From positions 73,144 to 137,143 of the forward strand of contig JAWCDE010000001.1 of the NCBI GenBank assembly GCA_038861395.1: 64,000 nucleotides of DNA, read 5' to 3'. This document shows positions 26,209 to 64,000 of this stretch, piece by piece. Numbering within the stretch: position 1 is the stretch's first letter; each line of letters opens with the position of its first letter. The DNA comes from Thermoproteota archaeon (GTDB taxonomy: Archaea > Thermoproteota > EX4484-205 > JAAOZP01). The position numbers and the translations under genes are program-made. Below the pieces are notes generated by a model. It was not told the DNA's origin. It ran no database searches and saw only the letters and a list, made by a program, of their open reading frames with translations.

Positions 26209-26299
26209 TGCGGCGCCCGGGATTTGAACCCGGGATTCCCAGCTTGGGGGGCTGGTTTTAGGGAAGCAAGCCTGTCCTACCAGGCTAGACCAGCGCCGC
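26209..26299 (-). tRNA. Probable tRNA-Gly (anticodon CCC) with a 17-nt non-canonical intron between the D-stem and the anticodon stem
   Basis: Reverse complement: GCGGCGC-TG-GTCT-AGCCTGGTA-GGAC-[aggcttgcttccctaaa]-A-CCAGC-CCCCCAA-GCTGG-GAATC-CCGGG-TTCAAAT-CCCGG-GCGCCGC-A. Arms are near-identical to the intronless tRNA-Gly(TCC) at 43127-43201. The anticodon loop is unusual (C33). Confidence 0.55.
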
Positions 26300-43126: not shown

Positions 43127-43201
43127 TGCGGCGTCCGGGATTTGAACCCGGGATCCCCAGCTTGGAAGGCTGGTGTCCTAACCAGACTAGACGAACGCCG
43201 C
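43127..43201 (-). tRNA. tRNA-Gly (anticodon TCC), intronless
   Basis: Reverse complement: GCGGCGT-TC-GTCT-AGTCTGGTTA-GGAC-A-CCAGC-CTTCCAA-GCTGG-GGATC-CCGGG-TTCAAAT-CCCGG-ACGCCGC-A. Confidence 0.8.
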
Positions 43202-43307: not shown

Positions 43308-43913
43308 ATGAGGAAAATCATAGTTGTTACTGGCACACCTGGAACCGGCAAAACATCTCTGTGCAGCTATGTAGTGAGAAAGAATAGAGGATGGGTGCAT
43401 CTTGACTTGGGAGAGTTTGCAATAGATTCGAATGCTGTAGTTGGCTACGACAGTATTATGAAAACTAGAATTGTGGATACAAACGTTCTGAAGAAGGCTT
43501 TACGAAAATATATTTTAAGCAAGCTTGAAGAGGATTTAAACCTCCTAATAGACGGCCATTATGCTGCGGAGGTTTCTCCAGCTGACTACGTGGACTGTTG
43601 TATCGTATTGAGATGCAGACCCGATGTTCTTTGGCATAGACTCAGGAAAATTAGAGGATACAATGAGGAAAAAGCGAGGGAGAATCTTGAATCAGAGCTT
43701 ACGGATTATTGCTACCTAAATGCTAAAAAATACTTGAAAAAAGTAAGGATCATACAGTTAGACACTACTAGGAAAAGCATTAAAAAACTCTATTACAGGT
43801 TTATGAAATGCTATAAGAATGACTTTAAATGTAAGAGTGATGAAGTGGATTGGATTAGCTATTTCTCTAAGCATTCCGAGAAGCTGAATCTCCTTTTTCG
43901 TTTGAATCGATAG
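43308..43913 (+). CDS. fap7: Fap7/adenylate-kinase-6-like NTPase with C-terminal extension
   Basis: P-loop VTGTPGTGKTS, the DGH motif, and LRCRPDVLWHRLRKIRGYNEEKARENLESEL, which matches the archaeal Fap7 lid region. The C-terminal 60 aa are AT-rich and overlap the convergent HerA-like gene by 47 nt. Confidence 0.6.
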   Translation: MRKIIVVTGTPGTGKTSLCSYVVRKNRGWVHLDLGEFAIDSNAVVGYDSIMKTRIVDTNVLKKALRKYILSKLEEDLNLLIDGHYAAEVSPADYVDCCIVLRCRPDVLWHRLRKIRGYNEEKARENLESELTDYCYLNAKKYLKKVRIIQLDTTRKSIKKLYYRFMKCYKNDFKCKSDEVDWISYFSKHSEKLNLLFRLNR

Positions 43914-45663
43914 ATAAAAGGATTGGTTTAGAAATGCCTTCAGCCGTTAAAAAGCCGTATCCCGGGGGAAGCCTCTTAAGAAGGTCATAATCTTCCTGAG
44001 GTAAACCCATTATATCCATTAGGATTCTCGACTCCTCCCCCTCGCATATTCTATGAGAGATTTTCAAACCGGTGGACTTTATTATTTCTGGAGAAATCTG
44101 TGACGGAAATTGTGATATAAGTATTAAACTTTCATTAAACTTCCTCATCTCTAAAAATAATTTTTCAGCTATAGTCGGTGGTGAATCACGCCTCCTGTAA
44201 GGAAGTATATTATGCGCTTCTTCTAATACGATGAAGTGGCGTTTTGCATTCCTATTCTTTAATCTAAATTCGTAAAGTAATGCTAAAATGAAAAGTGAAG
44301 TCAGTTTACGCATATCCACTTCTATGATATCTCCGAGCTCGAAAACAGTAATTCCTTCTAATATATCTTTGATGCTTATTAGCTTATCCCTATTGCAGAA
44401 AATTTCTCTGTTCTGTCCTGTTACTAGAGGCCTTAATCTTCTTAACAATGCAAACTTCGTCTCATTTTCATAGAATGATTTAATACTCCATTTCTCTAAT
44501 GTATCTATAAAGGAAACCAAAGGATCATGTGCTTTAATACCGAGCATGTTCTCTGTTAACGTTTGTAAAAGCACCTCTCTAAACATATATGATTGTGACG
44601 GCGTAAAATTATATATTTGATCAAAAATATCTGTAACTATTGCAACATGCTCAGATACATTGTTAGATTCAATAGGGTTAATTATATCTAGAGTGAAAGA
44701 CCCTAATCCTAAAATTCTTCCATTAAGCTCTTCTGCAAGATGACGGTATTCATTATGCCAGTCTAGAATCATTAAAGAATATCCCAATCTTGCTAATTCT
44801 CTTACTATATGTTTGGCGGTAGTTGTCTTTCCCGATCCTGTTGAACCATATATGGCGACATGCTTCTCAAACATATTGATCTTTAATTTTAACGGAGCAA
44901 TTTTAGAACCACTGAAAATAACCGATCCTAAATCTATTGTTTCTTTTTCCCCCTCATGTTCAATATAAGAATTTGAAGGAAGCAGGGAAGTATAGCCAGG
45001 TATATGCGGTGCGAGCGAATTTGCTAAATCTCTTGCTTTAGACTTTCCTAAGAAAGGTTTATCTATTAAAATACTGTTCAAATACTTAATAAGTTTCTCC
45101 CCCTTCAATCTGACTATTTTCAGTTCTGGAAAAGCAGTATTGTAAATAGATCTAATTTTTTCAATATCTGTTTCAAGCATTTTTATAGCTTCGTTAATGC
45201 CCTCTCGACCTATTTTTCTACTAACTATTAAAAGCTGCGTCAAATGAGCAGAGTCCTCAGAAGCCTCAATGGGAGAAATATGCGTTACGCATGTGAGTGA
45301 AACTCCGGACTTTAAAATACCGCTTATGAAACTCTGAACCTTCCGATAGTAATCGTCGGCTTTAATACTGCTTAATTCAGAGCTTTCTTCAGGAGATATT
45401 GAAACCCCTCCTATTATTAATTCAGAGGAGTCTGTTTTCACAATAAAGTATTTTTCGTCATTAATTGGTAGTATACTTTTAATAGATTTGGAGCGTTTTA
45501 ATAAAAACGCTATTATGATGGTTATTAGGGAGAATACTATAGGCAAAACAGCTGGAAAATAATTGTTGAAAGAAAAAGGCAAAGCGGTTATAATATGTTT
45601 AAACATCAATATGAGTAACACTATCAGAAATATGAAGTATATTGGATCTATTTTTTGATCCAT
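43867..45663 (-). CDS. Membrane-anchored HerA/VirB4-type (DUF87) ATPase, CedB/TrbE-like
   Basis: Two N-terminal TM helices, then a HerA-FtsK-superfamily core: Walker A AIYGSTGSGKTT followed by ILDWHNEY, and Walker B FIVLEEAHNIL. 598 aa. Last gene of the island operon. Confidence 0.7.
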   Translation of the reverse strand: MDQKIDPIYFIFLIVLLILMFKHIITALPFSFNNYFPAVLPIVFSLITIIIAFLLKRSKSIKSILPINDEKYFIVKTDSSELIIGGVSISPEESSELSSIKADDYYRKVQSFISGILKSGVSLTCVTHISPIEASEDSAHLTQLLIVSRKIGREGINEAIKMLETDIEKIRSIYNTAFPELKIVRLKGEKLIKYLNSILIDKPFLGKSKARDLANSLAPHIPGYTSLLPSNSYIEHEGEKETIDLGSVIFSGSKIAPLKLKINMFEKHVAIYGSTGSGKTTTAKHIVRELARLGYSLMILDWHNEYRHLAEELNGRILGLGSFTLDIINPIESNNVSEHVAIVTDIFDQIYNFTPSQSYMFREVLLQTLTENMLGIKAHDPLVSFIDTLEKWSIKSFYENETKFALLRRLRPLVTGQNREIFCNRDKLISIKDILEGITVFELGDIIEVDMRKLTSLFILALLYEFRLKNRNAKRHFIVLEEAHNILPYRRRDSPPTIAEKLFLEMRKFNESLILISQFPSQISPEIIKSTGLKISHRICEGEESRILMDIMGLPQEDYDLLKRLPPGYGFLTAEGISKPILLSIDSNEKGDSASRNA

Positions 45664-45667
45664 TATT

Positions 45668-45856
45668 TTAAGGAAGGAGCCATCCGAATAGGCTATAGCC
45701 TAAGTCGCTTACACCCTTTATTAGAGAGTTGAAGAAATTAGCTATGTTATCCACGATTTGTTTTGAAACCCCAAAGACTGCTCCAAGCATTACTAGTGCG
45801 AGTACAACAAGCAATCCCTCTTCTATTAATTGCGATCCCTTAATTCTCGTTTTCAA
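45668..45856 (-). CDS. Pilin-like small protein with a class III (prepilin-type) signal peptide candidate
   Basis: MKTRIKG|SQLIEEGLLVVLALVMLGAVFG: a basic leader, G at -1, then a hydrophobic helix. 62 aa. Sits between the TadC-like and HerA-like genes. Confidence 0.4.
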   Translation of the reverse strand: MKTRIKGSQLIEEGLLVVLALVMLGAVFGVSKQIVDNIANFFNSLIKGVSDLGYSLFGWLLP

Positions 45857-45920
45857 ATCTACATCACCTCATTTACAGAAGGAGATGAACAAAATATAAG
45901 CTCCAATGGAATTGAGACAT

Positions 45921-46694
45921 TCAAAATAGGAATGCTGTAAGTACTCTGTTAAATATTAGAAAAGAGAGTGCAAAACTAGTTATAGAGTATAATAATGTTT
46001 TCAAAAGCCTCTTATAAGAGAGAGAATAATGTACTAATATCGAAATGCTCAGTAAATACGTAAATAATGAAAATGTTTGCGATGCTTCTAATTGAAGAAT
46101 CGGCTTCGATGAAAGGGAAGAGAACATATTGATTACTGGTCCCGCTGCTGAAAGAAATCCCATTAAAAGAGCACTAACGATTAGCATTATTCTGGCTCTA
46201 AACCTTGCTTCTGAAAAAATGTTTCTCCTCTCATTTTTCAGTATCTCGTTTTCTTTCAGAATGATGATATATGTTTCTAAAACTTTTTTGGCAGAAGATG
46301 CATCCCTAACAAATAGGCTTGAAACGAGTCTCATCAATATTTTAATAGTTTTATCTGAAGATTTGGAATACTTTACTAAAGCTTTTCCTATTGGAAAACC
46401 GTTTATGTTGTCGTGAATAGCCTTTTCGAAAATCTTACGACAATTCGTTTCCTCGTTAATATCCGGAAATGATTTAAAAACTAAATTTTCCAAGTTTCCA
46501 GGATATTCGGATATCTTCTCTACTGCTCTCAAATCCAGTGCTTTTGGAGAATCCACATCATCTCCATTTTTGGTCAATATTAATGTATATACTAGAAGTT
46601 GTAATGAACTTATAGCTGGAATCTCGAGTTTTAAGATAAATGCTAAAATAAGAATTCCTGCTTCAATTAATATATAATAATAAATATTCCTCAA
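45921..46694 (-). CDS. TadC/FlaJ-like type IV pilus platform membrane protein (T2SS-F-like repeat), second half
   Basis: 257 aa: N-terminal TM pair, a soluble helical domain of about 130 aa, then C-terminal TMs. Confidence 0.45.
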   Translation of the reverse strand: MRNIYYYILIEAGILILAFILKLEIPAISSLQLLVYTLILTKNGDDVDSPKALDLRAVEKISEYPGNLENLVFKSFPDINEETNCRKIFEKAIHDNINGFPIGKALVKYSKSSDKTIKILMRLVSSLFVRDASSAKKVLETYIIILKENEILKNERRNIFSEARFRARIMLIVSALLMGFLSAAGPVINMFSSLSSKPILQLEASQTFSLFTYLLSISILVHYSLSYKRLLKTLLYSITSFALSFLIFNRVLTAFLF

Positions 46695-47272
46695 CCTAGT
46701 AATACACTCTTGATCTTTCTAATCTTATTAAAAAATATTCTAAATATCAGGGTATTGGAAATGAAAAAGATTGGCAGTAGTATATAGGAAGTCTGTGGCA
46801 GAAATTCTGAGATCAGTATAATTGGAGTTGGAACAAGGAAGATATAGAAGAAGAAAATAGAAACCAAAGAGTTAAGCTTTAAAGTATATTCTTGGTATTT
46901 CCTTCTTGCCTTTGATTCAAAAATCCTAAAGAGCACTAGAACTTCTTCTGAACTTATCTTCTTCGCATCGATGGAGAATGCTTGATCAATAATAGTTAAT
47001 AGTTCTGGCTCATTTTGTAAAGAATTTTTTATCATTTTTTGCATATCCTTTCCGTTTAAGTTCTTCTTAAGACATTTTCTTAATAAGCTGTAGATATTAC
47101 CGTATTCCTTTTTTGAAACGCTATAAAGTGTCTTATATAGATCATTATAAATTGTTTTAGCAGTAATGATATCCATTGCCAATGGAGTCACTATCTCATA
47201 ATGACTCTCTTCTTTTTTCCTTAATGGTGTTAAAATGTAAAGAAATGTTAAAAGATTCTTAATACTCTTCAT
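46691..47272 (-). CDS. TadB/FlaJ-like platform membrane protein, first half
   Basis: 193 aa with a cytoplasmic helical domain and C-terminal TMs. 4-nt overlap with the downstream half. Confidence 0.4.
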   Translation of the reverse strand: MKSIKNLLTFLYILTPLRKKEESHYEIVTPLAMDIITAKTIYNDLYKTLYSVSKKEYGNIYSLLRKCLKKNLNGKDMQKMIKNSLQNEPELLTIIDQAFSIDAKKISSEEVLVLFRIFESKARRKYQEYTLKLNSLVSIFFFYIFLVPTPIILISEFLPQTSYILLPIFFISNTLIFRIFFNKIRKIKSVLLG

Positions 47273-47277
47273 AGCTT

Positions 47278-49140
47278 CTATTTCCTCCCTAAAGTCTTCG
47301 AATAGGTTTCAAGAACAAGGCCCCTGATAACGGAGTTTTCTGAAAAACCGTGATTAATAATTATTCTTTTAATATCCTCATATATTTCTTGAAGAACATT
47401 TTCTTCAATACAGTTTAAACGTGCTAATTTTCTAAATATCTTTGAAGCGTTTAAATCATCATAATATGGAGAATTTTTCAAAAAATTATTATTAGCGTAA
47501 ACTTTCTTCAAACCAGAGTTCTCATCAACTATCTTTATCTCGCTTATAAACCGTTTAACCGTATTTCTCCATTCTAATCTCTTCATATTTATTATTAAGT
47601 CTAGCTCTGGTATGAGTAATTCTGGGATGCCGTATACTTTTACAAGCCTCTTAATAAACCCATTGCTATCGGAAGCGTGTGCAGTATGCATTATCCTGAG
47701 TCCAGCGGAAACTGCTCGAAACATTGCTTTTACATGCCCCCTGGTTTGGATCTCTCCAAGAATTAGATAAGAAGGGGTTCTGTGAAGTACCTTAATTATT
47801 TCGAGAGTTTTAGTATCCTTAGCCTCCCTGCTTTCCAATGGCTCGACAATGTATACTATCCTGTGTTGATCAGAAACTCTTGGAGGAAGCGTTTCAAGAG
47901 CGTCTTCTATATGCACTATGCGCCACCAAGGGGGCATGAAGTAGCTTAAAAAGTTTAAGAGAGAAGTTTTTCCAGAATTTGGTTCTCCAACTATAGATAT
48001 GTTGGCCCTGTTAAGCGTGGCAAAGATTAAGAAGGCAGCAGATTCTGGAGAAAAATAATGCGTCTCCAGAAGGTACTTGAGAGGAAGAACATTACTCATA
48101 TGCTTTCGTACATCTATAACTCCTTTACCCCAGGTTAGGGGAGGAATATCTACCGAAATTCTTATAGGTATTTTATCAAAAAATATGGAAGTCTTAATTG
48201 AAGGATTAGCATAATCCAGATTAAGGTTAGACTCTCTTTTGATCAGGGTTATGAAGCTTTCAAAATCCTTCTCTTGAAATTTGAGGTTTGTATCTAGTCT
48301 TCCAAAAACGGCGTGGTCTACATATAACTTTTCACCAACATTGTCTAAGAAGAAGTTTTGCACGTTATCATCGATTATTAAAGGAAAGATCTTGGATAAT
48401 CCAATCGAAGAATATAGAGCATGTTTAACAAGAGACTTCTTTACGGATTTCTCGATTTCTCTTAAAGTCAGAATGTTTAAGAATCTTAAACCAGTTTTAA
48501 GCCTATGTCTGTAAATTTGATCTAGTCTTCCACTCCTAAGCATTTCTTCAGAATAAGCATAACGTAAGAGTATCGAAAGCTCTTTATTAATCCAGAAATA
48601 ATCATCTGATAAGAAGGAAACTCTGTAAAGACTATTTCTTTCGTCTATTGAGTAGAGTAAGTGGCCTATTACGTATCTATGATCGTCTGAAAACTTCTTG
48701 TTAAAAACATTTTCCCTATCTTTAATACCGCATTTGGTCAATAACTCGCCGGGTATATTAAGTTCCAGCATCTGGTTTAAGTATTTTAAGTATAAGGTAC
48801 CGTAAGACGGAGTAATGCAGAGCTCTTTCTGAATGTCATCTAGGTTAGTGTAGTTATCACAATTTTTTTCAGCAAGAGCTCTATAACGCTTGTTTTTCTC
48901 TTCCATAACTCTTTGAGAGCATTTCTTTAGAAAATCTAAGCAATCTTTATTGACCTCGTACCATTCATCGTCAAGATAAACTATAATTCTTCTCGGGGAA
49001 AGATGTGTAAGCTTATGTATAATGCTGCAGAAAAGGGAAGAGTCGATTTTCTGAGCGGATAGGTAGAGAATTCTACTCCTAGCATTCCATGACCATGTTC
49101 TTCGTGCAAAAAATACGAGGCTTTCTCTAGTCTCGCTCAT
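47278..49140 (-). CDS. Type II/IV secretion system ATPase (FlaI/TadA/VirB11-GspE family) with a long N-terminal extension
   Basis: C-terminal domain with Walker A IVGEPNSGKTSLLN, the Asp box and LILGEIQTRG (GEIR-type motif), and the His box HTAHASDS. About 330 aa of N-terminal sequence of unknown family. 620 aa. Confidence 0.75.
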   Translation of the reverse strand: MSETRESLVFFARRTWSWNARSRILYLSAQKIDSSLFCSIIHKLTHLSPRRIIVYLDDEWYEVNKDCLDFLKKCSQRVMEEKNKRYRALAEKNCDNYTNLDDIQKELCITPSYGTLYLKYLNQMLELNIPGELLTKCGIKDRENVFNKKFSDDHRYVIGHLLYSIDERNSLYRVSFLSDDYFWINKELSILLRYAYSEEMLRSGRLDQIYRHRLKTGLRFLNILTLREIEKSVKKSLVKHALYSSIGLSKIFPLIIDDNVQNFFLDNVGEKLYVDHAVFGRLDTNLKFQEKDFESFITLIKRESNLNLDYANPSIKTSIFFDKIPIRISVDIPPLTWGKGVIDVRKHMSNVLPLKYLLETHYFSPESAAFLIFATLNRANISIVGEPNSGKTSLLNFLSYFMPPWWRIVHIEDALETLPPRVSDQHRIVYIVEPLESREAKDTKTLEIIKVLHRTPSYLILGEIQTRGHVKAMFRAVSAGLRIMHTAHASDSNGFIKRLVKVYGIPELLIPELDLIINMKRLEWRNTVKRFISEIKIVDENSGLKKVYANNNFLKNSPYYDDLNASKIFRKLARLNCIEENVLQEIYEDIKRIIINHGFSENSVIRGLVLETYSKTLGRK

Positions 49141-49283
49141 CTGTAGACAACCTTTAGGAAATTGCTTAGCTCACGATACTTTTTCTCCAAGCTTAAAACC
49201 CTGTTGTTGAGCTTGCTTAGACTAATCTTCAAATCCTCTATTTCTTGAATTATTGCATTAATTAATAGATCGTCTTTGGACAT
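49137..49283 (-). CDS. 48-aa coiled-coil micro-ORF translationally coupled (ATGA overlap) to the secretion ATPase
   Basis: Translated by hand: MSKDDLLINAIIQEIEDLKISLSKLNNRVLSLEKKYRELSNFLKVVYR*. Its TGA stop overlaps the ATG of the downstream ATPase gene. Not in the ORF track because it is under 60 aa. Confidence 0.35.
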   Translation of the reverse strand: MSKDDLLINAIIQEIEDLKISLSKLNNRVLSLEKKYRELSNFLKVVYR

Positions 49284-49371
49284 CACTTCTATTCTAAACT
49301 TTTAAAAAGAATATTTATCTGCCAATATTGACACTCATTGGAGGTTATAAGCATTCTTACAGAGATTTCTG

Positions 49372-49554
49372 TTGAATAATGAAAGAAAATTTCAAACTGG
49401 GAGGTTTAGAGAGATGAGTAATCTGTTAGAGAAAAGTCTGATAGTGCTTTTTTCAACAATAATCTTTGGAATTAGTATTGCTTACTTGCTTGATCAAGTA
49501 GTTCCTATGCTCAAGCAAATATACGATGTCGTAGTTAAACTGATTACTGGCTAA
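49372..49554 (+). CDS. Small membrane protein (pilin-like candidate)
   Basis: 60 aa with one hydrophobic helix (LIVLFSTIIFGISIAYLL) after a basic leader. First of four co-oriented small genes. Confidence 0.3.
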   Translation: MNNERKFQTGRFREMSNLLEKSLIVLFSTIIFGISIAYLLDQVVPMLKQIYDVVVKLITG

Positions 49555-49559
49555 CTCGG

Positions 49560-49955
49560 GTGAGATCATTGAGCGAAATACTTGAAGAACATTTGAAAGA
49601 TGCTTCATGGCTTTTTACATCACTTCTAATAGGAATTGTTATTTTTAATACTGCTTGTGTTCTGAAAACGGATTTCTTGAAAAATATCTTTGAAAGCATA
49701 TTTTTAGTAATAAAACAATACGCCGTCCTTTCGGAGGAGCATGGATGTACTTTCACTCTGTTAATGCCAAGTCCTCCCTTAATTAATTATTCCATTATGC
49801 TTGACGGCAACAAGTATTACATTATTATTCATGGGATCTGTGTTTTCGAGGGGGAAGAGGAATATTATTACTTTAATAGAGTCATTTTAGAACCTGGAGG
49901 CAAATATTTTGTAAAAGCATCAGGTAGGGAGGTTGTATTTACTAGGCATGAGTGA
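49560..49955 (+). CDS. Small protein with N-terminal TM helix (pilin-like candidate)
   Basis: 131 aa. GTG start. The hydrophobic segment WLFTSLLIGIVIF lies near the N-terminus. Confidence 0.3.
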   Translation: MRSLSEILEEHLKDASWLFTSLLIGIVIFNTACVLKTDFLKNIFESIFLVIKQYAVLSEEHGCTFTLLMPSPPLINYSIMLDGNKYYIIIHGICVFEGEEEYYYFNRVILEPGGKYFVKASGREVVFTRHE

Positions 49956-50072
49956 TAAGCTACTCGAATCACTATTCTCCTCAATCGTAGTCTTGCTGAT
50001 AATAATCGAACTTGGTTTGGCTCTTTTGCTTACCTTACATAATATATCTATTATGATGGGCTTCATTAAAAG

Positions 50073-50468
50073 GTGGTGAAAAATACTATGGATTCTTGGG
50101 AAAGTATGTTAGCAATAATCTTAAGCTTCTTTCTAGTTATACCCGTGGTTGCTGCTTCCCAATATTTGAGGTTGAAATTCAAATCATTATCCGATATCGA
50201 TGAGGATTTGAGAATAGAGGTTAATGCACTTACGATACTTGACCAAGAACATGAGATCAAAAATATGCTCGAGAAATTGATTAAATTTCTAAATTCTGAT
50301 GAAGTAGAATGGGTGAGTATAGAGCTTTCCAGCGAGAAGCATGGGAGGATTACAATAAGGAATGAAAGAGTTTCAATAGAGTCTTGGAAGCAGGTCAAAT
50401 ATGTCAAAGTCTTAAAGATCATGGGCGAAGATGTATTGTATCTTACGATAGGGATTAGAAATGATTAA
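50073..50468 (+). CDS. Small protein with N-terminal signal/TM (pilin-like candidate)
   Basis: 131 aa. MLAIILSFFLVIPVVAAS then a soluble domain. Confidence 0.35.
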   Translation: MVKNTMDSWESMLAIILSFFLVIPVVAASQYLRLKFKSLSDIDEDLRIEVNALTILDQEHEIKNMLEKLIKFLNSDEVEWVSIELSSEKHGRITIRNERVSIESWKQVKYVKVLKIMGEDVLYLTIGIRND

Positions 50469-50964
50469 AACCTGGCTTATTGTAGTGTTTGTTTCAATTC
50501 TCATAATGATTGTTCTACTTGCAGTAAACCTCATGCTCTTAGTAAATGTTGAGCTTTCAGTAAATTTCTTAAAACAAAAAAGGAAAGCGATAATCGCTGA
50601 TTCCTGTATAGATGATTTCTTTAAAAGTATTAGCACAATTCTGGATGATAGCATAAGTAGTTCGAGAGGGAATTTTTCAATTATGAGGGAAACCTTAGAA
50701 AAGAGGATTGAAAAATTAATGGAAAAAGTTTCAAAAACCAAAGGATTTTTAGAAGAATGCGGATTAAAAATCTGCTTTGAAAACTCTATTGTTTTCCTCA
50801 ATAATACTGAAGAATACGTTATCCAAATAGCTGTTAAGGCTTATGCAGAAGACTGCGAAGGATTTTTCTCAATTAGGCGTAGTAGCAATATAGTACGTTT
50901 CCTTCGTCAAGAAATCTGTGAAGAATCGAATATTGCTGAACTTTTTCCAAACAATTCCTCATAA
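50461..50964 (+). CDS. Small protein with N-terminal TM helix (pilin-like candidate)
   Basis: 167 aa. WLIVVFVSILIMIVLLAVNLMLLV. 8-nt overlap with the preceding gene. Confidence 0.35.
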   Translation: MIKTWLIVVFVSILIMIVLLAVNLMLLVNVELSVNFLKQKRKAIIADSCIDDFFKSISTILDDSISSSRGNFSIMRETLEKRIEKLMEKVSKTKGFLEECGLKICFENSIVFLNNTEEYVIQIAVKAYAEDCEGFFSIRRSSNIVRFLRQEICEESNIAELFPNNSS

Positions 50965-51836
50965 GTTTCTCTAACACTGTATTCTGCATATCCTATGTAC
51001 TCTGCTAATTCCCTTTGAGTAACGGGGTTTTTGATGTTTAAGATTGATGCTGCTTCTTTAGATGCTGCGTAAATTATAGAAGCTATGCATATCATCGGGT
51101 TCTTGCTTCTAAAAAAATAATGTTTGGCTCTTAAATCTTTGAGAATTCTTAATGAGATTGTTTTAAGATTATTGATAAAATTGACTTTGTCTTCAGGTTT
51201 AAGCTTTTCCAGACGGCTATTATTCCTCATGATCATAGAGGTGATTTCAATAATTGTCTTATCAGCATCGTTTTTCGTTTCCATAAGGCCTATCTCTCTT
51301 GCTGCAGACATTACTTGAAGAATATCCCTGGTTTTAACTTTAAGACCGATGCTTTGCAAATATATCCTTATCTTCTTGTAATGAGGAGCTATGCTTAAGC
51401 CATGGAACCTTGCTGCAACAACTACAGAATACGTTGCAATAGCTGCTCTATTAGGTCTTTCACGATTTTGTCTGAATACATGAAGCAGGCTTAAACCAAT
51501 CCGATGCGATTCCAGTCTTATTGAGGGACCTAAATGGAATGTATCACACAATTTATCTATTAACCATTTTAATTCGCTTTCGCTTTTATTAGAGGGGGAT
51601 ATGCTCTTTTGGAGGCTGGAGATTTTTCTAAGAGAGTTTTTCTCTATAATAATGCTCCCGTAATGAGGTTCTTTTTGAATAATGTGATTCGGACTTGGAT
51701 GGGCCACATATCTGTTCGAAGCACTAACAACTAGACCGCATCTGCTGCAAACAAGCTCATTATCCGAACTTATAATGGGGGAGTTACAGTTAGGGCATTT
51801 CGTAAAGTCTTGGACTACTTCTTGGCGCATCTTCAA
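50907..51836 (-). CDS. tfb: Transcription factor B (TFIIB) paralog, divergent
   Basis: N-terminal TFIIB zinc ribbon (CPNCNS...CSRCG) followed by two cyclin-like repeats (RPNRAAIATYSVVVAARFHG... and ...NPMICIASIIYAASKEAASILNIKNPVTQRELAEYIGYAEYSVRETYEEL). 309 aa. AT-rich. Confidence 0.72.
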   Translation of the reverse strand: MKMRQEVVQDFTKCPNCNSPIISSDNELVCSRCGLVVSASNRYVAHPSPNHIIQKEPHYGSIIIEKNSLRKISSLQKSISPSNKSESELKWLIDKLCDTFHLGPSIRLESHRIGLSLLHVFRQNRERPNRAAIATYSVVVAARFHGLSIAPHYKKIRIYLQSIGLKVKTRDILQVMSAAREIGLMETKNDADKTIIEITSMIMRNNSRLEKLKPEDKVNFINNLKTISLRILKDLRAKHYFFRSKNPMICIASIIYAASKEAASILNIKNPVTQRELAEYIGYAEYSVRETYEELFGKSSAIFDSSQIS

Positions 51837-51953
51837 AGTAACATAGTCTGTTAATCGATAAAAGCTACTATGAAATAGAGTTATGCTCTAAAGTAAATAA
51901 CATGCTTCAGAAAGTATTAAAAATAGGGAGTGGAGTGTAAAAATGGGTTAAAA

Positions 51954-52373
51954 ATGATGAGGGCAGGATTCACAACAGAAGTCAACCGCTTGATAGGGAA
52001 AAAGGTTGTCGTAGTTACTCAGGGTGGTGAAGAATTCTCTGGGGTTTTAGCATCTTTAGACATAGACACTTTTTCGGTTATTCTGAATGACGTAGAGCTA
52101 AGAGGGGGCGGTGTGTTGCCAAAAATTATACTTAATGGTAGAGATGTAAAAAGAATAGAGCTTAAAAGAGCAATCGTTGACCTGAGGAAGCTGGCGGAGA
52201 GAATAGAAAGGGTATTTCCTAAAATGGTGCAGTATAATGAAGAAGCAGGGGTAATAATAGTGATGAATAGAATAAGGGTTACTGAAGACGGTGTTGTAGA
52301 AGGAAGTGGCCTTGCTGCGGAAAAGGTCAGCGAGATATATAATGAATTTGTTAAAGAGATTTCAGAGTCCTAA
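51954..52373 (+). CDS. Sm-like (LSm) protein with C-terminal extension
   Basis: Sm1/Sm2 pattern (LIGKKVVVVTQGGEEFSGVLASLDIDTFSVILNDVEL) plus about a 70-aa C-terminal domain. An alternative start lies at 51930. Confidence 0.5.
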   Translation: MMRAGFTTEVNRLIGKKVVVVTQGGEEFSGVLASLDIDTFSVILNDVELRGGGVLPKIILNGRDVKRIELKRAIVDLRKLAERIERVFPKMVQYNEEAGVIIVMNRIRVTEDGVVEGSGLAAEKVSEIYNEFVKEISES

Positions 52374-54469: not shown

Positions 54470-54557
54470 TGGGCCGGGCCGGATTTTCGAAGTTCTTCTC
54501 GAACCGGCGACCTCTGCCGTGTGAGGGCAGCGTCCTAACCATCTGAACGACCGGCCC
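54470..54557 (-). tRNA. tRNA-Val (anticodon CAC) with a 14-nt non-canonical intron inside the T-loop
   Basis: Reverse complement: GGGCCGG-TC-GTTC-AGATGGTTA-GGAC-G-CTGCC-CTCACAC-GGCAG-AGGTC-GCCGG-TTCGA[gaagaacttcgaaa]AT-CCGGC-CCGGCCC-A. All other arms are canonical, and only the T-loop is interrupted. Confidence 0.65.
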
Positions 54558-58843: not shown

Positions 58844-60022
58844 TTGGAATCCGGAAAGTCAGAGCACGCGTTACTCAGAATATCAATAGTAGGTGGGCTT
58901 GTCTGGGCTTCGTTCGCTCCCTTCAGTCTTTTTCTCGGAGTCTATTTAATATCCCAAGGCTTATCATATGCTTCCATTGGCCTGCTGATGACAACCACCA
59001 GTATACTATCTTCCTTTCTACAACTAGCCTTTGGCTCATTAGCAGATAAGTATCAGAATACGAGGCTTATAATTTCACTCACACTTCTTGCTAGAAGCAT
59101 CGCATGTCTAATACTTGTATTTTCAAGAGACTTGGCAAGCATCCTATTATGGTATATTGTGTCAGGTGTTTTTCTCTCTGGATTTTTACCGATTGCCCAA
59201 TCTATGGTTGCAAAACTTTCTGAGGATGAAAGACTCGGCTTTTCCATGGGGAAATACAGATTATCCGGATCTCTAGGATGGGCTTTTTCCTGCATACTGA
59301 CAGGTCTATTCGCCAGGTATGAAATGTGGAATATATTTCCAATAACACTGATTCTATCCTTTTCCTCTTTTCTTACAAGTTTAGTAATACCGGAAGTCGA
59401 AGGGATTGCAGTAAGTCATCGCGAAATTGGGAGACGTGAAACGCGCAAGCCTGCTAAACTGATTGTTTTCTTCATACTCAGCATATTTCTGTCAAGCTTA
59501 AGTATGAGTGCCGCATCCTCATTTTTAAACATCTTTCTTTTCCAATTGGGAAGCGATCCTTTTTTCATAGGTATTATCATTGCAATAGGCGCGTTCTTAG
59601 AAGTCCCCGCCATGTACTTAGGCGGAATATTATCGGATAAGATTGGCGAAATACTGGTTTTAATGGCGGGGGAAATGGGTTTAGGAGTAATTTATTGGCT
59701 TTATGGAACTGTTAAAAATATTTACACTTATATTATTATCCAAGGGTTTAGGGGAATCTTATATGCGTTCTTTATGGTTTCAGGAATGTCATTAAGCTCA
59801 AACGTGGGGGATGTTGGGAAAAAGGGTTTCTACGCTGGGCTCTATAATCTTTCACTCCAATTCGGAATGGCGTTAGGGCCTTTTCTAGGAGGCTTAGTCT
59901 CAGATGCTTTTGGATTATTAGCGATGTTCGTAACTGTTTCAATACTTTCAGAATTGTCATCAGCCCTACTAATCCCATTTGCTTTTAGTGCTAAGAAGAA
60001 AAATAGGCTTAAAGTTTCTTAA
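58844..60022 (+). CDS. Major facilitator superfamily transporter
   Basis: A 392-aa protein with about 12 TM segments and MFS-like loop motifs. Confidence 0.65.
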   Translation: MESGKSEHALLRISIVGGLVWASFAPFSLFLGVYLISQGLSYASIGLLMTTTSILSSFLQLAFGSLADKYQNTRLIISLTLLARSIACLILVFSRDLASILLWYIVSGVFLSGFLPIAQSMVAKLSEDERLGFSMGKYRLSGSLGWAFSCILTGLFARYEMWNIFPITLILSFSSFLTSLVIPEVEGIAVSHREIGRRETRKPAKLIVFFILSIFLSSLSMSAASSFLNIFLFQLGSDPFFIGIIIAIGAFLEVPAMYLGGILSDKIGEILVLMAGEMGLGVIYWLYGTVKNIYTYIIIQGFRGILYAFFMVSGMSLSSNVGDVGKKGFYAGLYNLSLQFGMALGPFLGGLVSDAFGLLAMFVTVSILSELSSALLIPFAFSAKKKNRLKVS

Positions 60023-61626
60023 TCAGTCTTGCTCTTCTCTTCCTTAGGTTTGAAAGATATTATTACTTCATCGACTCCAATTATGGATGAAGCCAGTTCT
60101 ACGGCAGAAGCAAGCCAGTTTTTAACAACCAAGTAGGGTTCAACCACTTCTTTATCAAGGCTCTCTATCTCCCTTTTTATAGCGTTCACTCCATAAGTCG
60201 CGCCATCGCTCGAAGAATGCTTTTTCTTAAGCATAGTCATTGCTGCTACTGGTTTCATCCCTGTATTAGTTACGAGAGTCCTCACCAATGACTCTATACT
60301 ATTTGCAAAAGCCTCATAAATCAGCCTCTCCTCTCCCTCCATGGTCTCAGCCCTGCTTCGTATCGTCTTCTCTATTTCCATTAGCTCTGCTCCCCCGCCA
60401 ATCACATACCTAGGATCTTTGTAGAGGCTTAAGATGGCCGAAAGTGAGTGTTTCAATTCTCTCTCATACTCTTTCAAAAGATCCTCGTTTACCCCCCTCA
60501 ATAGTATTGAGACAGCCTTGGGTTCTTCACACCCTTCTACGAAGACTATCTTCTCGTTTTCGAATACTTCTTCCTTAACAAGGCTTGCTCTACCAAGCTT
60601 ATCCGCAGTAATATCTTCTGGATCAGACACTATTTTCCCACGGGTTGCTCTCTCCAGCCTCTCCATATCAGATCTCTTTACTCTTCTAACTGCCGTTATA
60701 CCATTCTTGTAAAGGTATTGTTGTGCAAGCTCGTCTATTCCCTTTTGACAGAAAACTACGTTTGCTCCCGATTTAACTATTGCATCAACTTTATCGCGAA
60801 TTATTTTCTCCTCTTCCTCAATGAACCCGCGTAATTCCTCAGTAGTCTTCACTTCTATTTCGGTGGAGATCTCTGTCTTCTTCACTTCAAGAGCATAGTC
60901 TATTAAGGCTATTTTTGCATCTTTAACGGTTTTATTCATGTTTGGATGTACAATCTCCTTGTCGACTATGATCCCGTTTATCAATCTAGAGTTCAATACC
61001 TCGTTCCCCCGTTTCCTGACGATGCTCACCCAATCTACGTCAGCATAATACCCGCCGTTTCTCTTCTCGATTATTTTCTCAGCTGCTTCTAAGGAAATCT
61101 CGCCGAGAATCCTCCTCTCCTCCTGGGATGAGAAGAACGTGATGGCTGTTTCAGCGATTTTTCTCAGAAACTCTCTATCTTGGAGATCAGCTCGTTTAGC
61201 ATCCTTCTCCAATTGTCTGAGAGCTTCTGATAAGGCGCTATGGTATCCTCTGGTTATCGAGATAGGACTTATGCCCTGCCTATACAACTCATAGGCGTTT
61301 CTAACGAGTTCGCACATTAATAATATCAGAGAAGTCGTTCCATCTCCTATTTCTTTCTCCAATGCCTTGGCAGCGTCTACAATCATTTTTCCGATGGGGT
61401 GTTCAATATTCGCTTCGCTAAGGACTGTTACACCGGTCTTTGTAACGGTTATGTCTCCGACTGAGCCTACTAAAAGCTTGTTTAAACCGCGAGGCCCGTA
61501 GGCAGTTCTCAAAATCTCCCCTATAATAAGCGATGCTACAATATTGTTTTCATAGGCCTCTTCCTTACTCCTTCTTATAGTGGTCTCCTTTAATACTATT
61601 GCTGGCCTCACTTGCTCATAGGACAT
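60019..61626 (-). CDS. thsB: Thermosome subunit (second paralog)
   Basis: A 535-aa protein with GPRGLNKLL, GDGTTS and other group II chaperonin signatures. Diverged from the copy at 24350. Confidence 0.92.
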   Translation of the reverse strand: MSYEQVRPAIVLKETTIRRSKEEAYENNIVASLIIGEILRTAYGPRGLNKLLVGSVGDITVTKTGVTVLSEANIEHPIGKMIVDAAKALEKEIGDGTTSLILLMCELVRNAYELYRQGISPISITRGYHSALSEALRQLEKDAKRADLQDREFLRKIAETAITFFSSQEERRILGEISLEAAEKIIEKRNGGYYADVDWVSIVRKRGNEVLNSRLINGIIVDKEIVHPNMNKTVKDAKIALIDYALEVKKTEISTEIEVKTTEELRGFIEEEEKIIRDKVDAIVKSGANVVFCQKGIDELAQQYLYKNGITAVRRVKRSDMERLERATRGKIVSDPEDITADKLGRASLVKEEVFENEKIVFVEGCEEPKAVSILLRGVNEDLLKEYERELKHSLSAILSLYKDPRYVIGGGAELMEIEKTIRSRAETMEGEERLIYEAFANSIESLVRTLVTNTGMKPVAAMTMLKKKHSSSDGATYGVNAIKREIESLDKEVVEPYLVVKNWLASAVELASSIIGVDEVIISFKPKEEKSKTD

Positions 61627-61728
61627 TTCTTACCACCTCCAGGATTCTTCTTTAAAACCACTTTTTAAAAGCTTTTCTCACTTGAAAGAACAACGTTTAT
61701 TAGGGATATGTAAGAATTCACCTTCAGC

Positions 61729-61947
61729 TTGGGAAAAGTATACGACGGGAAGATAAAGGGAATCGCTAAATCACTGCTGTCGAAATACGGAGACCGTTTT
61801 AGTGATGATTATTATGCCAATAAAGAATTTTTGAAAAAGACTGCGATTTTCCGATCCAAGAAGATTTTGAACCGTGTCGCAGGGTATATCACATCAGTTA
61901 AATCTTCGGCCAAACGGCGGGAAGAGGTGGTTGAAGCTGGAGGATAA
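61729..61947 (+). CDS. rps17e: 30S ribosomal protein S17e
   Basis: A 72-aa protein with a TTG start. The GKVYDGKIKGIAKSLLSKYGDRFSDDYYANKEFLKK...ILNRVAGYIT pattern matches S17e. Confidence 0.65.
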   Translation: MGKVYDGKIKGIAKSLLSKYGDRFSDDYYANKEFLKKTAIFRSKKILNRVAGYITSVKSSAKRREEVVEAGG

Positions 61948-61993
61948 TAGGATCCCGATATTCCTCTCTATCTCAGACTACGGTTGGTTGAAA

Positions 61994-62314
61994 AGGATGC
62001 TCAAAGAGGCTGAGGCCTATCTTAACGAGTCTAAGAAAGCACCCTATCCCATGAAACTGGTTTATGCAAGAATGTCTATTGTCTCCAGCAGGATGATTAT
62101 TAACATGCTTTTCCCTCCCATAAGCAAGTACGGCGGTCCCAATATTGATGAAAAGAATCTTAATCCTATTGAATTCAGGATTAGAAGCCTGTATGACAAG
62201 GCTCTTGAAAAGTTTGACAAAATACAGTTATCCGAGGATGAGGCTGTCGAAATAAGTGATTTTCTATATAATCTTTCATCAACAATTTTCGAACAGATTC
62301 TGAGTAAGAATTGA
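61994..62314 (+). CDS. Hypothetical protein (start uncertain)
   Basis: An ORF open from 61874 that overlaps rps17e in another frame. The first ATG past rps17e is at 61994. Confidence 0.3.
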   Translation, partial: RMLKEAEAYLNESKKAPYPMKLVYARMSIVSSRMIINMLFPPISKYGGPNIDEKNLNPIEFRIRSLYDKALEKFDKIQLSEDEAVEISDFLYNLSSTIFEQILSKN

Positions 62315-62404
62315 AATGTCTTAAATTTCATATTTAAATACCGCCTTACACTAGGTTATTTGATGATGTAAACTGACCTGCTCTGAGAGTTGCCTCGATG
62401 AGGA

Positions 62405-63037
62405 TCATGCACCTCTCTGAAAACTATAATGCTCCTGCCTGATTTTTTTCAGATAACTGTCTACAATCATGGGAGGCAGACCTATATCTATTAGCATTTC
62501 TCTAAACTCCTCAATAGTCTTATTCTCCTCCTTAAGACTACGTTTAGCAAGCTTCCTAATTGTTTCACCAATCTCATGTGGGAATATTATCCATTTCTCA
62601 GTTTTCTTAACATAATAATCTGGCTTCAAAATACTCCACGGCTTATAGTAGACGGTTGCAATCTTCACGATTAGAGCCCCTTTCTCCTGAAGATGCTTAC
62701 GAACCGTCTCAAGGCTTCTCCCAGTGTCCGCAACATCATCGACCACAAGAACTCTCCTTCCCGCAACGTCAACATTAACGTCCTGAACTATTCTGGGCTC
62801 ACTCCCAGTCTTCTTAACATCTTCGTAGAAAACAACTCTTATGACTCCTATTTCAACATCTTCGAATTCATCGGAGAATATTCTTAATGGAACTAGCCCT
62901 CCTCGAGAGATGCCGATAATCACCTCCGGTCTATAGCCTGATTTCAAAACTTTATCTACAAGCTCTAGGGTAAGCTGGTAGAAATGCTCCCAACTTACTA
63001 CTTCAAACTCCATGGGTGGTTTAGATTTCATAATCAT
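62405..63037 (-). CDS. Type I phosphoribosyltransferase (purine PRTase-like)
   Basis: PRPP-binding motif VLVVDDVADTGRSL. 210 aa. Confidence 0.7.
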   Translation of the reverse strand: MIMKSKPPMEFEVVSWEHFYQLTLELVDKVLKSGYRPEVIIGISRGGLVPLRIFSDEFEDVEIGVIRVVFYEDVKKTGSEPRIVQDVNVDVAGRRVLVVDDVADTGRSLETVRKHLQEKGALIVKIATVYYKPWSILKPDYYVKKTEKWIIFPHEIGETIRKLAKRSLKEENKTIEEFREMLIDIGLPPMIVDSYLKKIRQEHYSFQRGA

Positions 63038-63046
63038 GAATAATAA

Positions 63047-63619
63047 ATGTTTTTATCCCATTCCCCAACAGCTAAATCATTGAACATTAAAGCGATAGAA
63101 ACATTGAACATATACTTTGCTCTCTTCTCAGTTAGCCCTTTGCCGAAGGACTGGACTGAAATCGCGACGGATATTAAGAGTGGCAATAAGGTTTCCATCC
63201 AGTTTTTTAAACAAGGCTCTCTAGTTACCGAGCTCGTTCCATTCTTAGTCTACAATGTCCACCAGGCTTTTAAATACCATTATAATTCGCTAAAGGGGTT
63301 TGAACAGGAGCTTCTAATAGCCCTCTACGGGAAAAGGAGCTTCCAAGAAGCGTTGTCCAACATTGGAGTATCAGCTTGCGATAAGGCAGTAGTACTCCTT
63401 TTATCAGAAACGGTCGAGGAGCTGGAGAAAGCGATAGAGGTCTTGAAGAAAAAGGTTTCTGAAGCAGGCTCTAATATTGAACCGTTTGAGAACGATGAGG
63501 ATTTATTTGCATCGTTCTGGAGGCTCCTTTTCACAAGGCTAGGCTTTGGAGCAATGGGTATGGACTACCATCAAATACTCGAATTCGTCAAAGAGAGGAT
63601 TGCAATAAGCTACTTATAG
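63047..63619 (+). CDS. cgi121: KEOPS complex subunit Cgi121-like
   Basis: The pattern ELLIALYGKRSFQEALSNIGVS...AVVLLLSE...FTRLGFG parallels the archaeal Cgi121 helical core. The start may be internal. Confidence 0.45.
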   Translation: MFLSHSPTAKSLNIKAIETLNIYFALFSVSPLPKDWTEIATDIKSGNKVSIQFFKQGSLVTELVPFLVYNVHQAFKYHYNSLKGFEQELLIALYGKRSFQEALSNIGVSACDKAVVLLLSETVEELEKAIEVLKKKVSEAGSNIEPFENDEDLFASFWRLLFTRLGFGAMGMDYHQILEFVKERIAISYL

Positions 63620-63680: not shown

Positions 63681-64000
63681 CTTGGAAGCACCATCTCTGG
63701 TGGTAAACGTTCAGGAGGTTACTAAAGATTATGTTTTGAAAAGCGGTGTCGTAAAGGCTTTGAAAGGAATCAACCTCCAAGTTAGGAGGGGGGAGTACAT
63801 TTCCATAATGGGTCCTTCCGGAAGCGGTAAAACAACCCTGTTCAACATGATCGGTGGACTGGATAGGCCTACGAGTGGAAGTGTATTCATAGATGGGATG
63901 GACTTGGCTAAAATGAATGATCGTCAGCTAGCATGGGTTAGAAGTAGGAAAATAGGATACATATTCCAGACTTTTAATCTAATCCCCGTGTTGTCTGCAC
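63681..64000 (+). CDS. ABC transporter ATP-binding protein (LolD/MacB-type), truncated by the window edge
   Basis: Intact Walker A GPSGSGKTT and the Q-loop region. Runs off the 3' edge of the window. Confidence 0.75.

Follow-up and report, generated by a model that had tools for sequence, protein, structure and literature searches.

A 64,000-nucleotide (nt) stretch of contig JAWCDE010000001.1, assembled from a thermoproteotal archaeon, carries a compact set of minus-strand genes that combines parts like those of a type IV pilus with a membrane-anchored ATPase resembling CedD, the DNA-import ATPase of the Sulfolobales. This stretch, at its full length, is called the window, and coordinates are positions in it. 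The gene parts were defined from open reading frame (ORF) calls, Pfam matches, and prediction of transmembrane (TM) helices. An earlier reading made from the letters alone (here, the sequence-only reading) had taken the host for a member of the Crenarchaeota; it is an archaeon of the TACK group (Thaumarchaeota, Aigarchaeota, Crenarchaeota, and Korarchaeota) but one of the Brockarchaeota, and near-identical relatives are labeled Candidatus Brockarchaeota. The public records in which exactly these proteins occur are metagenome-assembled genomes.

The set comprises six genes between 49286 and 43867, with gaps by ORF calls of −4, +5, −4, +64, and +4 nt, in order, and is preceded by an intergenic region on the other side of which a second arm of genes diverges.

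49137..49286, minus strand: small coiled-coil protein, first gene of the operon; 49 amino acids from GTG or 48 amino acids from ATG at 49283
47278..49140, minus strand: pilus-assembly ATPase of the archaeal FlaI/GspE2/TadA type; 620 amino acids
46691..47272, minus strand: platform protein, first half, TadB-like; 193 amino acids, a cytoplasmic helical domain followed by two C-terminal TM helices (predicted)
45921..46694, minus strand: platform protein, second half, TadC/T2SSF-like; 257 amino acids, three predicted TM helices, 4-nt overlap with the TadB-like gene
45668..45856, minus strand: Flp-like type IV prepilin; 62 amino acids, TTG start
43867..45663, minus strand: CedD-type membrane-anchored HerA/FtsK-superfamily ATPase; 598 amino acids, last gene of the operon
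49287..49413, no strand: divergent intergenic region, presumed promoter region of both arms

The sequence-only reading had described a tightly packed unit with stop/start overlaps, and this description was confirmed. The gaps between the six genes range from −4 to +64 nt, the stop of the coiled-coil ORF overlaps the start of the 620-amino-acid ATPase gene as ATGA, and the TadB-like and TadC-like genes overlap by the 4 nt originally proposed (46694 versus 46691). Cotranscription of the six genes is supported by the conservation of the arrangement. A scan of one genome per species returned 80 loci, in which ORFs were called and iterated profiles were built for each cluster protein; loci are cited by L numbers where they have to be told apart. 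Homologs of the small coiled-coil protein occupy the same position in 25 loci of Brockarchaeota-type clades, and the protein itself found no family match in scans with Pfam and NCBIfam-type models. At the other end of the operon, a gene for an AAA_18 (adenylate kinase/Fap7-like) protein at 43308 to 43913 on the plus strand converges on the CedD-like gene, with a 47-nt overlap at its 3′ end. Most of 88 loci, some of them from lineages at 30% identity, show such a convergent overlap, which measures about 10 to 110 nt.

The TTG start of the prepilin gene is backed by its orthologs and by a Shine-Dalgarno-like GAGGTGAT 7 nt upstream. A TTATATTT element in the 64-nt gap before this gene could give the pilin gene an internal promoter of its own. 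A TATA-like TTTTTAAAA precedes the first minus-strand gene by about 25 nt, within the region at 49287..49413 that is presumed to serve both divergent arms. One copy of the ANTTTC motif of TFB3-dependent promoters (PMC5817253) occurs near this intergenic region; the motif is too short for the copy to mean anything, and no claim is made for it.

The two ATPases

CedD (Saci_0667, SiRe_1715) was described in the Sulfolobales in 2025 as a DNA-import ATPase with a TM part, an N-domain, and an ATPase domain; it is essential for DNA import and dispensable for aggregation (PMC11868833, PMC11823120). Its gene is UV induced and TFB3 dependent in these organisms (PMC11868833, PMC11823120, PMC6101591, PMC6101594). 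The best family match of the 598-amino-acid protein of the window is the NCBIfam model of CedD (NF053655, DNA-translocating ATPase), with an E value of 2.7e-62 and 211 bits. Because this match is full length (residues 14 to 586 on model positions 5 to 526/527) but reaches only 211 bits against an equivalog cutoff of 600, the protein, which is also about 70 amino acids longer, is best described as a remote CedD relative or a member of a sister family, not an equivalog. It begins with two predicted TM helices (residues 10 to 28 and 37 to 55), followed by an N-domain and a P-loop ATPase domain, and Pfam detects DUF87/HerA, with DUF87 at residues 244 to 458. The architecture of CedD and TedD of the Ced and Ted systems is the same, with TM helices at the N terminus, then an N-domain and a HerA/FtsK-type ATPase. 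All members of the CedD-like family have the Walker A sequence GSTGSGKT and EE in Walker B.

The relationship holds at the level of families, which retrieve each other. CedD is the best match for all 11 of the 11 diverse members of the CedD-like family, with E values down to 3.5e-71. Conversely, the CedD-like family profile, searched against 1.84 billion representatives, returned its own members first and then proteins of 510 to 550 amino acids; of these, 10 were checked and 4 pass the CedD equivalog cutoff. One cutoff-passing CedD is 31% identical to the window protein over 351 amino acids (E = 5e-39), in the ATPase domain.

The sequence-only reading had assigned this second ATPase to the VirB4 type, and this assignment was abandoned. 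VirB4 models score at most 43 bits on the protein, with TIGR00929 (VirB4_CagE) at 39 bits against a cutoff of 643, TraC at 31 bits, and TraG at 29 bits; in a PDB search, HerA was matched at 6e-14 and VirB4 at 2e-3. A repair HerA is ruled out as well. HerA models reach 34 to 59 bits against cutoffs of 800 to 970, the protein has two N-terminal TM helices, and its gene has no NurA, Mre11, or Rad50 neighbor, whether in the window or in relatives. The same comparison, 211 bits for CedD against 59 for HerA with no NurA nearby, disposes of the concern that the gene might be a housekeeping HerA partnered with NurA.

The 620-amino-acid protein carries the Pfam domain T2SSE. The proposed pairing of a pilus-type secretion ATPase with a membrane-bound HerA-superfamily ATPase therefore stands, given T2SSE in one protein and DUF87/HerA with two TM helices in the other. 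The likeness of the first ATPase to VirB11 did not withstand comparison. Among family models, FlaI scores 103 bits and VirB11 43 bits against a cutoff of 250, and a PDB search ranked archaeal GspE (2oap, 1e-21), FlaI (4ii7, 1e-19), and CpaF (6e-15) before VirB11 (3e-3). An AlphaFold2 model of the protein (predicted local distance difference test score [pLDDT], 85.6) was aligned by Foldseek with FlaI and afGspE over 483 to 496 columns, nearly their whole length, at an E value of about 1e-24, and with CpaF at 1e-21; VirB11 followed at 1e-13, with a query TM-score of 0.23 to 0.37. The protein is an archaeal pilus-assembly ATPase of the FlaI, afGspE, and CpaF kind, not a VirB11. Because the model aligns with FlaI and afGspE over these 483 to 496 columns, most of the N-terminal domain of about 330 amino acids that had been thought to have an unknown fold is the normal N-terminal domain of FlaI/GspE. 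What remains is an extension without known fold that covers the first approximately 125 amino acids and is specific to Brockarchaeota-type clades; orthologs in Nitrososphaeria measure 470 to 530 amino acids.

Two other sequences with ATPase matches are set apart from this family. L090, with a more distant ATPase that bears the precomputed PF27713 (UCP018868) mark, is a different, FlaH/FlaI-like locus; L089, with another such ATPase, is truncated and gave no informative context. An ORF that runs off the end of the window (63682 to 64000, plus strand) gave a weak match to the pilus-ATPase profile (E = 4e-5); it is a fragment of an ABC-transporter ATPase and thus no second secretion ATPase.

Both ATPase superfamilies also occur in type IV secretion systems (T4SSs), and together with a small membrane “pilin” and a plausible transfer of DNA they give the locus a certain likeness to the VirB4, VirB11, VirB2, VirB6, and VirD4 sets of conjugation. 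In this sense the locus could be a minimal T4SS or conjugative apparatus, the logic that the sequence-only reading had seen in it, with a VirB11 and a VirB4 that together send out the DNA of a mobile element. The weak matches to the VirB4, TraC, and TraG models (39, 31, and 29 bits) lean in this direction, as does a drop in G+C content over the locus (see below). Against it stand a first ATPase of the FlaI/GspE2/CpaF type and the fact that no T4SS-specific family was matched at family level.

Platform proteins, prepilin, and divergent arm

The sequence-only reading had guessed that the two middle genes are TadB/TadC-like, and profile comparisons lean the same way. In the family of the 257-amino-acid protein, Pfam T2SSF (PF00482) is matched in 3 of 25 members, at best with 3e-6; the window member has no match, and its L005 ortholog has a weak precomputed one. 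No Pfam match was found in any of the 23 members of the 193-amino-acid family, but in a profile-profile comparison with hhalign this family aligned with the 257-amino-acid family at 88.6% probability (E = 2.6e-6) over 56 columns in the cytoplasmic helical domain. By ORF calls, several thaumarchaeal loci have a single ORF of 403 to 486 amino acids that spans both platform genes, which may be a fusion or the result of an over-long start call. The 193- and 257-amino-acid proteins look like a split platform of the TadB/TadC type.

The 62-amino-acid protein is predicted to be cleaved after MKTRIKG, leaving a mature protein of about 55 amino acids that starts with SQLIEE. Its motif, defined over 77 distinct orthologs, is [KR][GA]|[SAV]Q[LI][IVL]EE, and a hydrophobic helix comes after it. 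All 77 carry G or A at −1 and EE at +5/+6, 65 of them carry K or R at −2, and the mature pilin has a median length of 56 amino acids. Compared with the Flp motif G|XXXXEY, the motif G/A|xQLIEE keeps the E at +5 and replaces the Y at +6 by E. Because Pfam Flp_Fap (PF04964) matches just 2 of 29 pilin members, at best with 0.0034 and below the gathering score, the protein is named only Flp-like, that is, a putative prepilin with a class III/Flp-type signature (G|xxxxE) and not a proven member of the Flp family. A tblastn search of plasmids with two pilin sequences returned no match. No other protein of the cluster evolves as slowly as the pilin, which has 67% identity to its L005 ortholog, compared with 32 to 37% for the CedD-like protein, 15% for the TadC-like protein, and 21% for the transcription factor B (TFB) paralog described below. 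Such slow evolution would not usually be expected of an exposed major pilin and is in keeping with a pilin that is buried or belongs to a pseudopilus.

The genes of the divergent arm, the TFB paralog beyond them, and a further gene found in the divergent arm of relatives are as follows.

49414..49554, plus strand: pilin-like protein of 46 amino acids; MSNLLEK, then one hydrophobic helix; start fixed at MS[NS]LLEK by ortholog alignment
49560..49955, plus strand: pilin-like protein of about 128 to 131 amino acids; N terminus M..EILEEHLKD, then one TM helix; conserved in 21 loci
49933..50079, plus strand: small membrane protein of 43 to 48 amino acids (43 in the public record); one hydrophobic helix; counterpart in L003
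50073..50468, plus strand: pilin-like protein of about 126 to 131 amino acids; N-terminal TM helix
50461..50964, plus strand: pilin-like protein of 167 amino acids; N-terminal TM helix (MIKTWLI...)
50907..51836, minus strand: TFB/TFIIB paralog, full length, with Zn ribbon and cyclin repeats; 309 amino acids; Zn_Ribbon_TF match at 1.6e-6
L005:3768-4355 and L024:5443-6015, minus strand: GxGD-type prepilin-peptidase-like protein of about 190 amino acids, by motif signature

All five plus-strand genes (49414 to 50964) diverge from the operon, and each is predicted to encode one N-terminal hydrophobic helix. The 46-amino-acid protein, which the public record also calls with 46 amino acids, resembles at its N terminus the mature end of the 62-amino-acid pilin, without a leader. 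No family match above threshold was obtained for the pilin-like proteins at 49560..49955, 50073..50468, and 50461..50964. The leaderless N termini of these small proteins resemble the mature ends of type IV pilins, and the five proteins are candidate minor pilins. An acidic residue at position 5/6 after the initiator Met (MSNLLEK, M.EILEE, MQFLEG), followed by a hydrophobic helix, was seen in the divergent proteins (49414 to 50468), and N termini of the form M..[IL]D[IV] in their thaumarchaeal counterparts (reverse arms of L027, L038, L040, and L046).

In nine relatives (L005/6, L024, L025, L028, L031, L033, L034, and L070), the divergent arm contains the polytopic membrane protein of about 190 amino acids. 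It has an invariant D23, a G-x-[AG]-D83 motif, and a PFIP motif, with a weak match to Peptidase_A24 (E = 0.03), and is a candidate prepilin peptidase of the GxGD type.

The 309-amino-acid protein is regarded as a divergent TFB paralog because the general TFB model gives it only 24 bits. Of the 23 members of its family, 16 show the TFIIB repeat and 13 the Zn ribbon, and the family profile matches TFIIB structures in the PDB at 2.3e-23 across both halves. The protein is a candidate for a dedicated transcription factor of the cluster.

A short, highly conserved pilin accompanied by several minor-pilin-like proteins is what pseudopilus systems contain. The locus might accordingly serve pseudopilus-type protein secretion or surface assembly, comparable to type II secretion systems or the Sulfolobus bindosome assembly system (Bas), with the second ATPase exporting protein; Bas-type systems belong to the same ATPase clade (PMC4858521). 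This is improbable, since no conserved candidate substrate, binding protein, or S-layer gene is found in the locus, the closest ATPases of the HerA/FtsK clade are linked to DNA, and the linkage of TFB3 with cedD points to a DNA damage and DNA exchange regulon (PMC6101594).

The bacterial Tad/Flp pili (TadA/CpaF, TadB, TadC, Flp, TadV, and TadE/F) share with the locus a small prepilin of the form G|xxxxE, two platform genes, a CpaF-like ATPase (Foldseek, 1e-21), several pseudopilin-like genes, and, in the relatives, a short GxGD peptidase without a methyltransferase domain. The differences are that the window ATPase is closer to archaeal FlaI/GspE2, that there is no secretin or outer membrane part, that the CedD-type ATPase and the TFB paralog have no Tad counterpart, and that the Flp_Fap match is below threshold.

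Conservation, genomic neighborhood, and descent

The gene order that is kept among the loci runs from the TFB gene through 1 to 2 kb of reverse-oriented small genes to the pilus ATPase, platform, pilin, and CedD-like genes and the convergent AAA_18 kinase gene. It is found in Brockarchaeota, many Nitrososphaerales and metagenome-assembled genomes of Nitrososphaeria, Bathyarchaeia, and Geothermarchaeota. Among the 63 species-representative loci with enough upstream DNA, 62 have the pilus ATPase gene on the strand of the CedD-like gene and no more than 3 kb upstream of it. The pilin gene lies immediately upstream of the CedD-like gene in 69 of 74 loci (median gap, −1 nt), and a TFB paralog lies within 9 kb upstream in 51 of 52. 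As relatives at only about 30% identity repeat this order and tight spacing, the arrangement is far beyond what chance would give and, judging from these comparisons, the cluster is kept together by selection. L051 (Bathyarchaeota HyVt-197) is, among the loci with sufficient upstream sequence, the sole one in which the pilin and CedD-like genes are present and no pilus ATPase was detected within 3 kb.

Relatives at 31 to 37% identity share the housekeeping flanks, with genes for Lsm, PAC2, an aCPSF-like beta-CASP nuclease, thermosome, and S17e, and the locus is, on comparative grounds, chromosomal, conserved, and vertically inherited. Its G+C content is 0.33 to 0.35 at 44000 to 52000 and 0.42 to 0.46 in the flanks, a dip of 8 points that would suit a mobile element. 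Over 63 related loci, the difference between cluster and flanks follows the bias of each genome: it is negative in AT-rich genomes (as low as −0.08) and positive in GC-rich genomes (as high as +0.055). Because the deviation changes sign with genomic G+C content, the dip is not a sign of transfer; it points to fast-evolving genes that follow the mutational bias of each genome. A genomic island, considered on account of the dip and a tRNA-Gly gene at 43127 to 43201, was rejected, as the tRNA gene is parted from the locus by the housekeeping kinase gene and the synteny of cluster and flanks is conserved. No relaxase, VirD4, coupling protein, integrase, or border repeat is present in the locus, and no close relative of the locus was found among the archaeal plasmids and viruses in collections.

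These observations bear on the T4SS reading introduced above. In addition to its ATPase of the wrong kind, the locus has a pilin with a Flp/class III signal rather than the VirB2 form and T2SSF-like platform proteins, both in the manner of type IV pili, and it contains no VirB6/CedA-like channel. It is not mobile but flanked by housekeeping genes that recur in relatives at 30% identity, and its G+C deviation tracks the bias of each genome. A minimal secretion or conjugative apparatus is thus very improbable, and the corresponding proposal of the sequence-only reading is not retained.

The CedD-like gene and cedD share a neighborhood. In the Sulfolobales, tfb3 (saci_0665/SiRe_1717), thermosome beta (saci_0666/SiRe_1716), and cedD (saci_0667/SiRe_1715) are adjacent (PMC5817253, PMC7515695, PMC4569737, PMC10465181, PMC11868833). 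L091, a contig with an authentic CedD, agrees with this order and carries S17e, Urm1, a 122-amino-acid gene, CedD, thermosome, and a 172-amino-acid Zn-ribbon transcription factor. Both cedD and the CedD-like genes of the window type adjoin a TFB paralog and lie near thermosome, S17e, and RLI genes, and 23 of 75 loci have a thermosome gene 0.3 to 4.8 kb downstream of the CedD-like gene. This suggests a shared ancestry of the tfb3-thermosome-cedD region of the Sulfolobales and the window-type locus. In an intermediate lineage (L093:5019-8797), a full-length TFB paralog next to Rpo8 (RpbG) directly precedes the CedD-like gene, which again faces a convergent AAA_18 gene, and no pilus genes are present at the locus. 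Because L093 and the Sulfolobales keep the pair of TFB paralog and CedD without pilus genes, the pair appears to be the old core, and the pilus module sits between its members in the lineages studied. Because sequence similarity is limited to the Zn ribbon, orthology of the TFB paralog with TFB3 is a positional inference only.

In the window, a block at 58844 to 63619 contains an MFS (major facilitator superfamily) transporter, thermosome (60019 to 61626, minus strand), S17e (61729 to 61947, plus strand), a 146-amino-acid gene, a phosphoribosyltransferase, and a 190-amino-acid gene. It lies directly downstream of the CedD-like gene in L003 and L004, as do thermosome and S17e in L005 to L008; in the window, the thermosome/S17e block is found on the TFB side, at a distance of about 8 kb, which suggests that this lineage underwent a local rearrangement. 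Elsewhere in the window, a tRNA at 54470 to 54557 (minus strand) was found by Rfam and missed by ARAGORN, and a 91-nt tRNA-Gly(TCC) at 26209 to 26299 (minus strand) is reported by ARAGORN and not listed by Rfam. Several tRNAs of the window are 88 to 94 nt long and probably contain introns.

Function and comparison with known systems

Since the Sulfolobales need CedD to import DNA (PMC11868833, PMC11823120), the locus plausibly has a role in DNA transfer. By analogy, the locus may encode a pilus-assisted DNA transfer machine in which a pilus motor and a CedD-like translocase form the single-operon counterpart of Ups plus Ced, a reading to which a probability of roughly one-half is given. A hexameric assembly ATPase with a membrane platform is the standard motor for the extraction and polymerization of prepilins. 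In the proposed machine, the hexameric FlaI/GspE2/TadA-type ATPase and the split TadB/TadC-like platform would extract and polymerize the Flp-like prepilin, with the divergently encoded small proteins acting as minor pilins. The resulting pilus or short pseudopilus would contact or capture DNA or open the envelope, and the CedD-like hexamer, anchored by 12 TM helices, would pump DNA across the membrane, most likely inward, as with CedD in Sulfolobus. Expression of the locus would be turned on by the TFB paralog, in the way that TFB3 activates the ups, ced, and cedD genes.

Several points weigh against this DNA transfer reading. The function is transferred from a relative with 31% identity and a score of 211 rather than 600 bits. 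CedA, CedA1, and CedB, the T4SS-like partners of Sulfolobus CedD, have no counterpart within the locus, and no DNA-binding, nuclease, or recombination gene is found in it. On the pilus side, the profiles of the TadC-like, TadB-like, and pilin families had only chance matches in the PDB, such as designed helical bundles; the Flp-like character of the prepilin derives from its motif and the two subthreshold Pfam matches; and no prepilin peptidase was found in the window or its cluster. The TFB paralog resembles the TFB3-like protein only in the Zn ribbon. Finally, VirB4-type relatives act on pilins rather than DNA, and the second ATPase could serve the pilus itself.

This last point leads to the chief alternative, an ordinary surface pilus for adhesion, aggregation, or biofilm formation, in which the CedD-like protein would be a second pilus motor, either a VirB4-like pilin dislocase or a retraction motor in the place of PilT, and no DNA would be moved. 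All other parts of the locus are standard parts of type IV pili, no gene in it handles DNA, and the CedD-like gene follows the pilin gene directly (median gap, −1 nt); moreover, archaea lack the PilT family (PMC4858521), and VirB4-type members of the superfamily are established in pilus biogenesis of T4SSs. The closest characterized relative, CedD, however, is needed for DNA import and not for aggregation (PMC11823120, PMC11868833), and a pilin that evolves more slowly than any other protein of the cluster is unusual for an exposed adhesin. Because CedD or the CedD-like gene is kept with its TFB neighbor but without pilus genes in the Sulfolobales and L093, its function is independent of a window-type pilus. 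A surface pilus with two motors is therefore considered rather unlikely.

The DNA transfer reading can be extended. The Flp-type pilus or pseudopilus and the CedD-type translocase could form one physical apparatus for DNA uptake or exchange under a dedicated TFB, and the locus could represent the ancestral single-locus state of the TFB3 regulon that is dispersed in the Sulfolobales (ups genes and cedD). This extended form is put forward only tentatively, as a possibility that is itself doubtful.

Among known systems, CedD and TedD are encoded in different settings. The window gene ends a type IV pilus operon, whereas the Sulfolobales cedD stands alone and the TedD gene lies among T4SS-like ted genes. 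The Ups pili (UpsX-E-F-A-B), of clade 4 of Makarova et al., share with the locus a FlaI-like ATPase, a TadC-like platform, and pilins with class III signals. In DNA exchange these pili cooperate with Ced, and they are part of the TFB3 regulon (PMC11868833, PMC4858521). The window locus differs by its split platform, the additional N-domain of 125 amino acids in the ATPase, the CedD-type ATPase in the same operon, and a Flp-like pilin of about 55 amino acids with E at +5/+6, compared with a pilin of about 130 to 150 amino acids. The nearest described pilus-type locus with a TFIIB gene, likened here by its description, is subclade 4D of Makarova et al. (2016) in Thermoproteales, which comprises an ATPase, a protein with four to five TM helices, and a TFIIB homolog next to RPB8 (PMC4858521). 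Both link a secretion ATPase and a diverged TadC-like membrane protein to a TFIIB/TFB paralog, and Rpo8 (RpbG) beside the TFB and CedD-like pair of L093 recalls the RPB8-TFIIB association. The 4D loci differ in being described without pilins and with no HerA-type ATPase reported (PMC4858521).

Bacterial competence, with its ComG pseudopilus and ComEC/ComFA, likewise combines a type IV filament with a membrane ATP-driven DNA translocase. This likeness is one of analogy only, as the putative translocase of the window belongs to the HerA/FtsK clade and not to ComFA, which is of the DEAD-box type, and no ComEC-like channel is present. Flp pili support DNA uptake in bacteria, with Flp-pilus-dependent transformation in Micrococcus luteus (reviewed in PMC6370729). 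Judged by such analogies, the working logic of the locus resembles that of Ups plus Ced and of bacterial competence more than that of conjugation. Each component is of a known kind, and what is new to the literature searched is the combination, a CedD-type ATPase that ends a Flp-like pilus operon headed by a TFB paralog, in several classes of TACK archaea.

An understanding of archaeal DNA exchange has been reached only for the Sulfolobales (Ups plus Ced) and, at the level of structure, for a few relatives (Ted). The locus offers a natural experiment on two questions about such exchange, namely how the pilus and the DNA-pumping parts cooperate and what CedD does (PMC11868833, PMC11823120), with at least four large, mostly uncultivated lineages in which a CedD-type ATPase is hard-wired into a pilus operon beside a TFB gene, and it suggests that the TFB3-cedD linkage of the Sulfolobales is ancient. 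It is predicted that the CedD-like ring touches the TadB/C-like platform, that expression depends on the TFB paralog, and that lineages of importance to soil and hot spring ecology can take up DNA. If the function lies in pilus dynamics, the protein would be a candidate second pilus motor for archaea, which lack PilT. If the extended form of the DNA transfer reading is true, many uncultivated TACK archaea (among them soil Nitrososphaerales, Bathyarchaeia, Geothermarchaeota, and Brockarchaeota) would be expected to be naturally competent or to exchange chromosomal DNA, and the primary partner of CedD would be a type IV pilus rather than the T4SS-like parts CedA and CedB.

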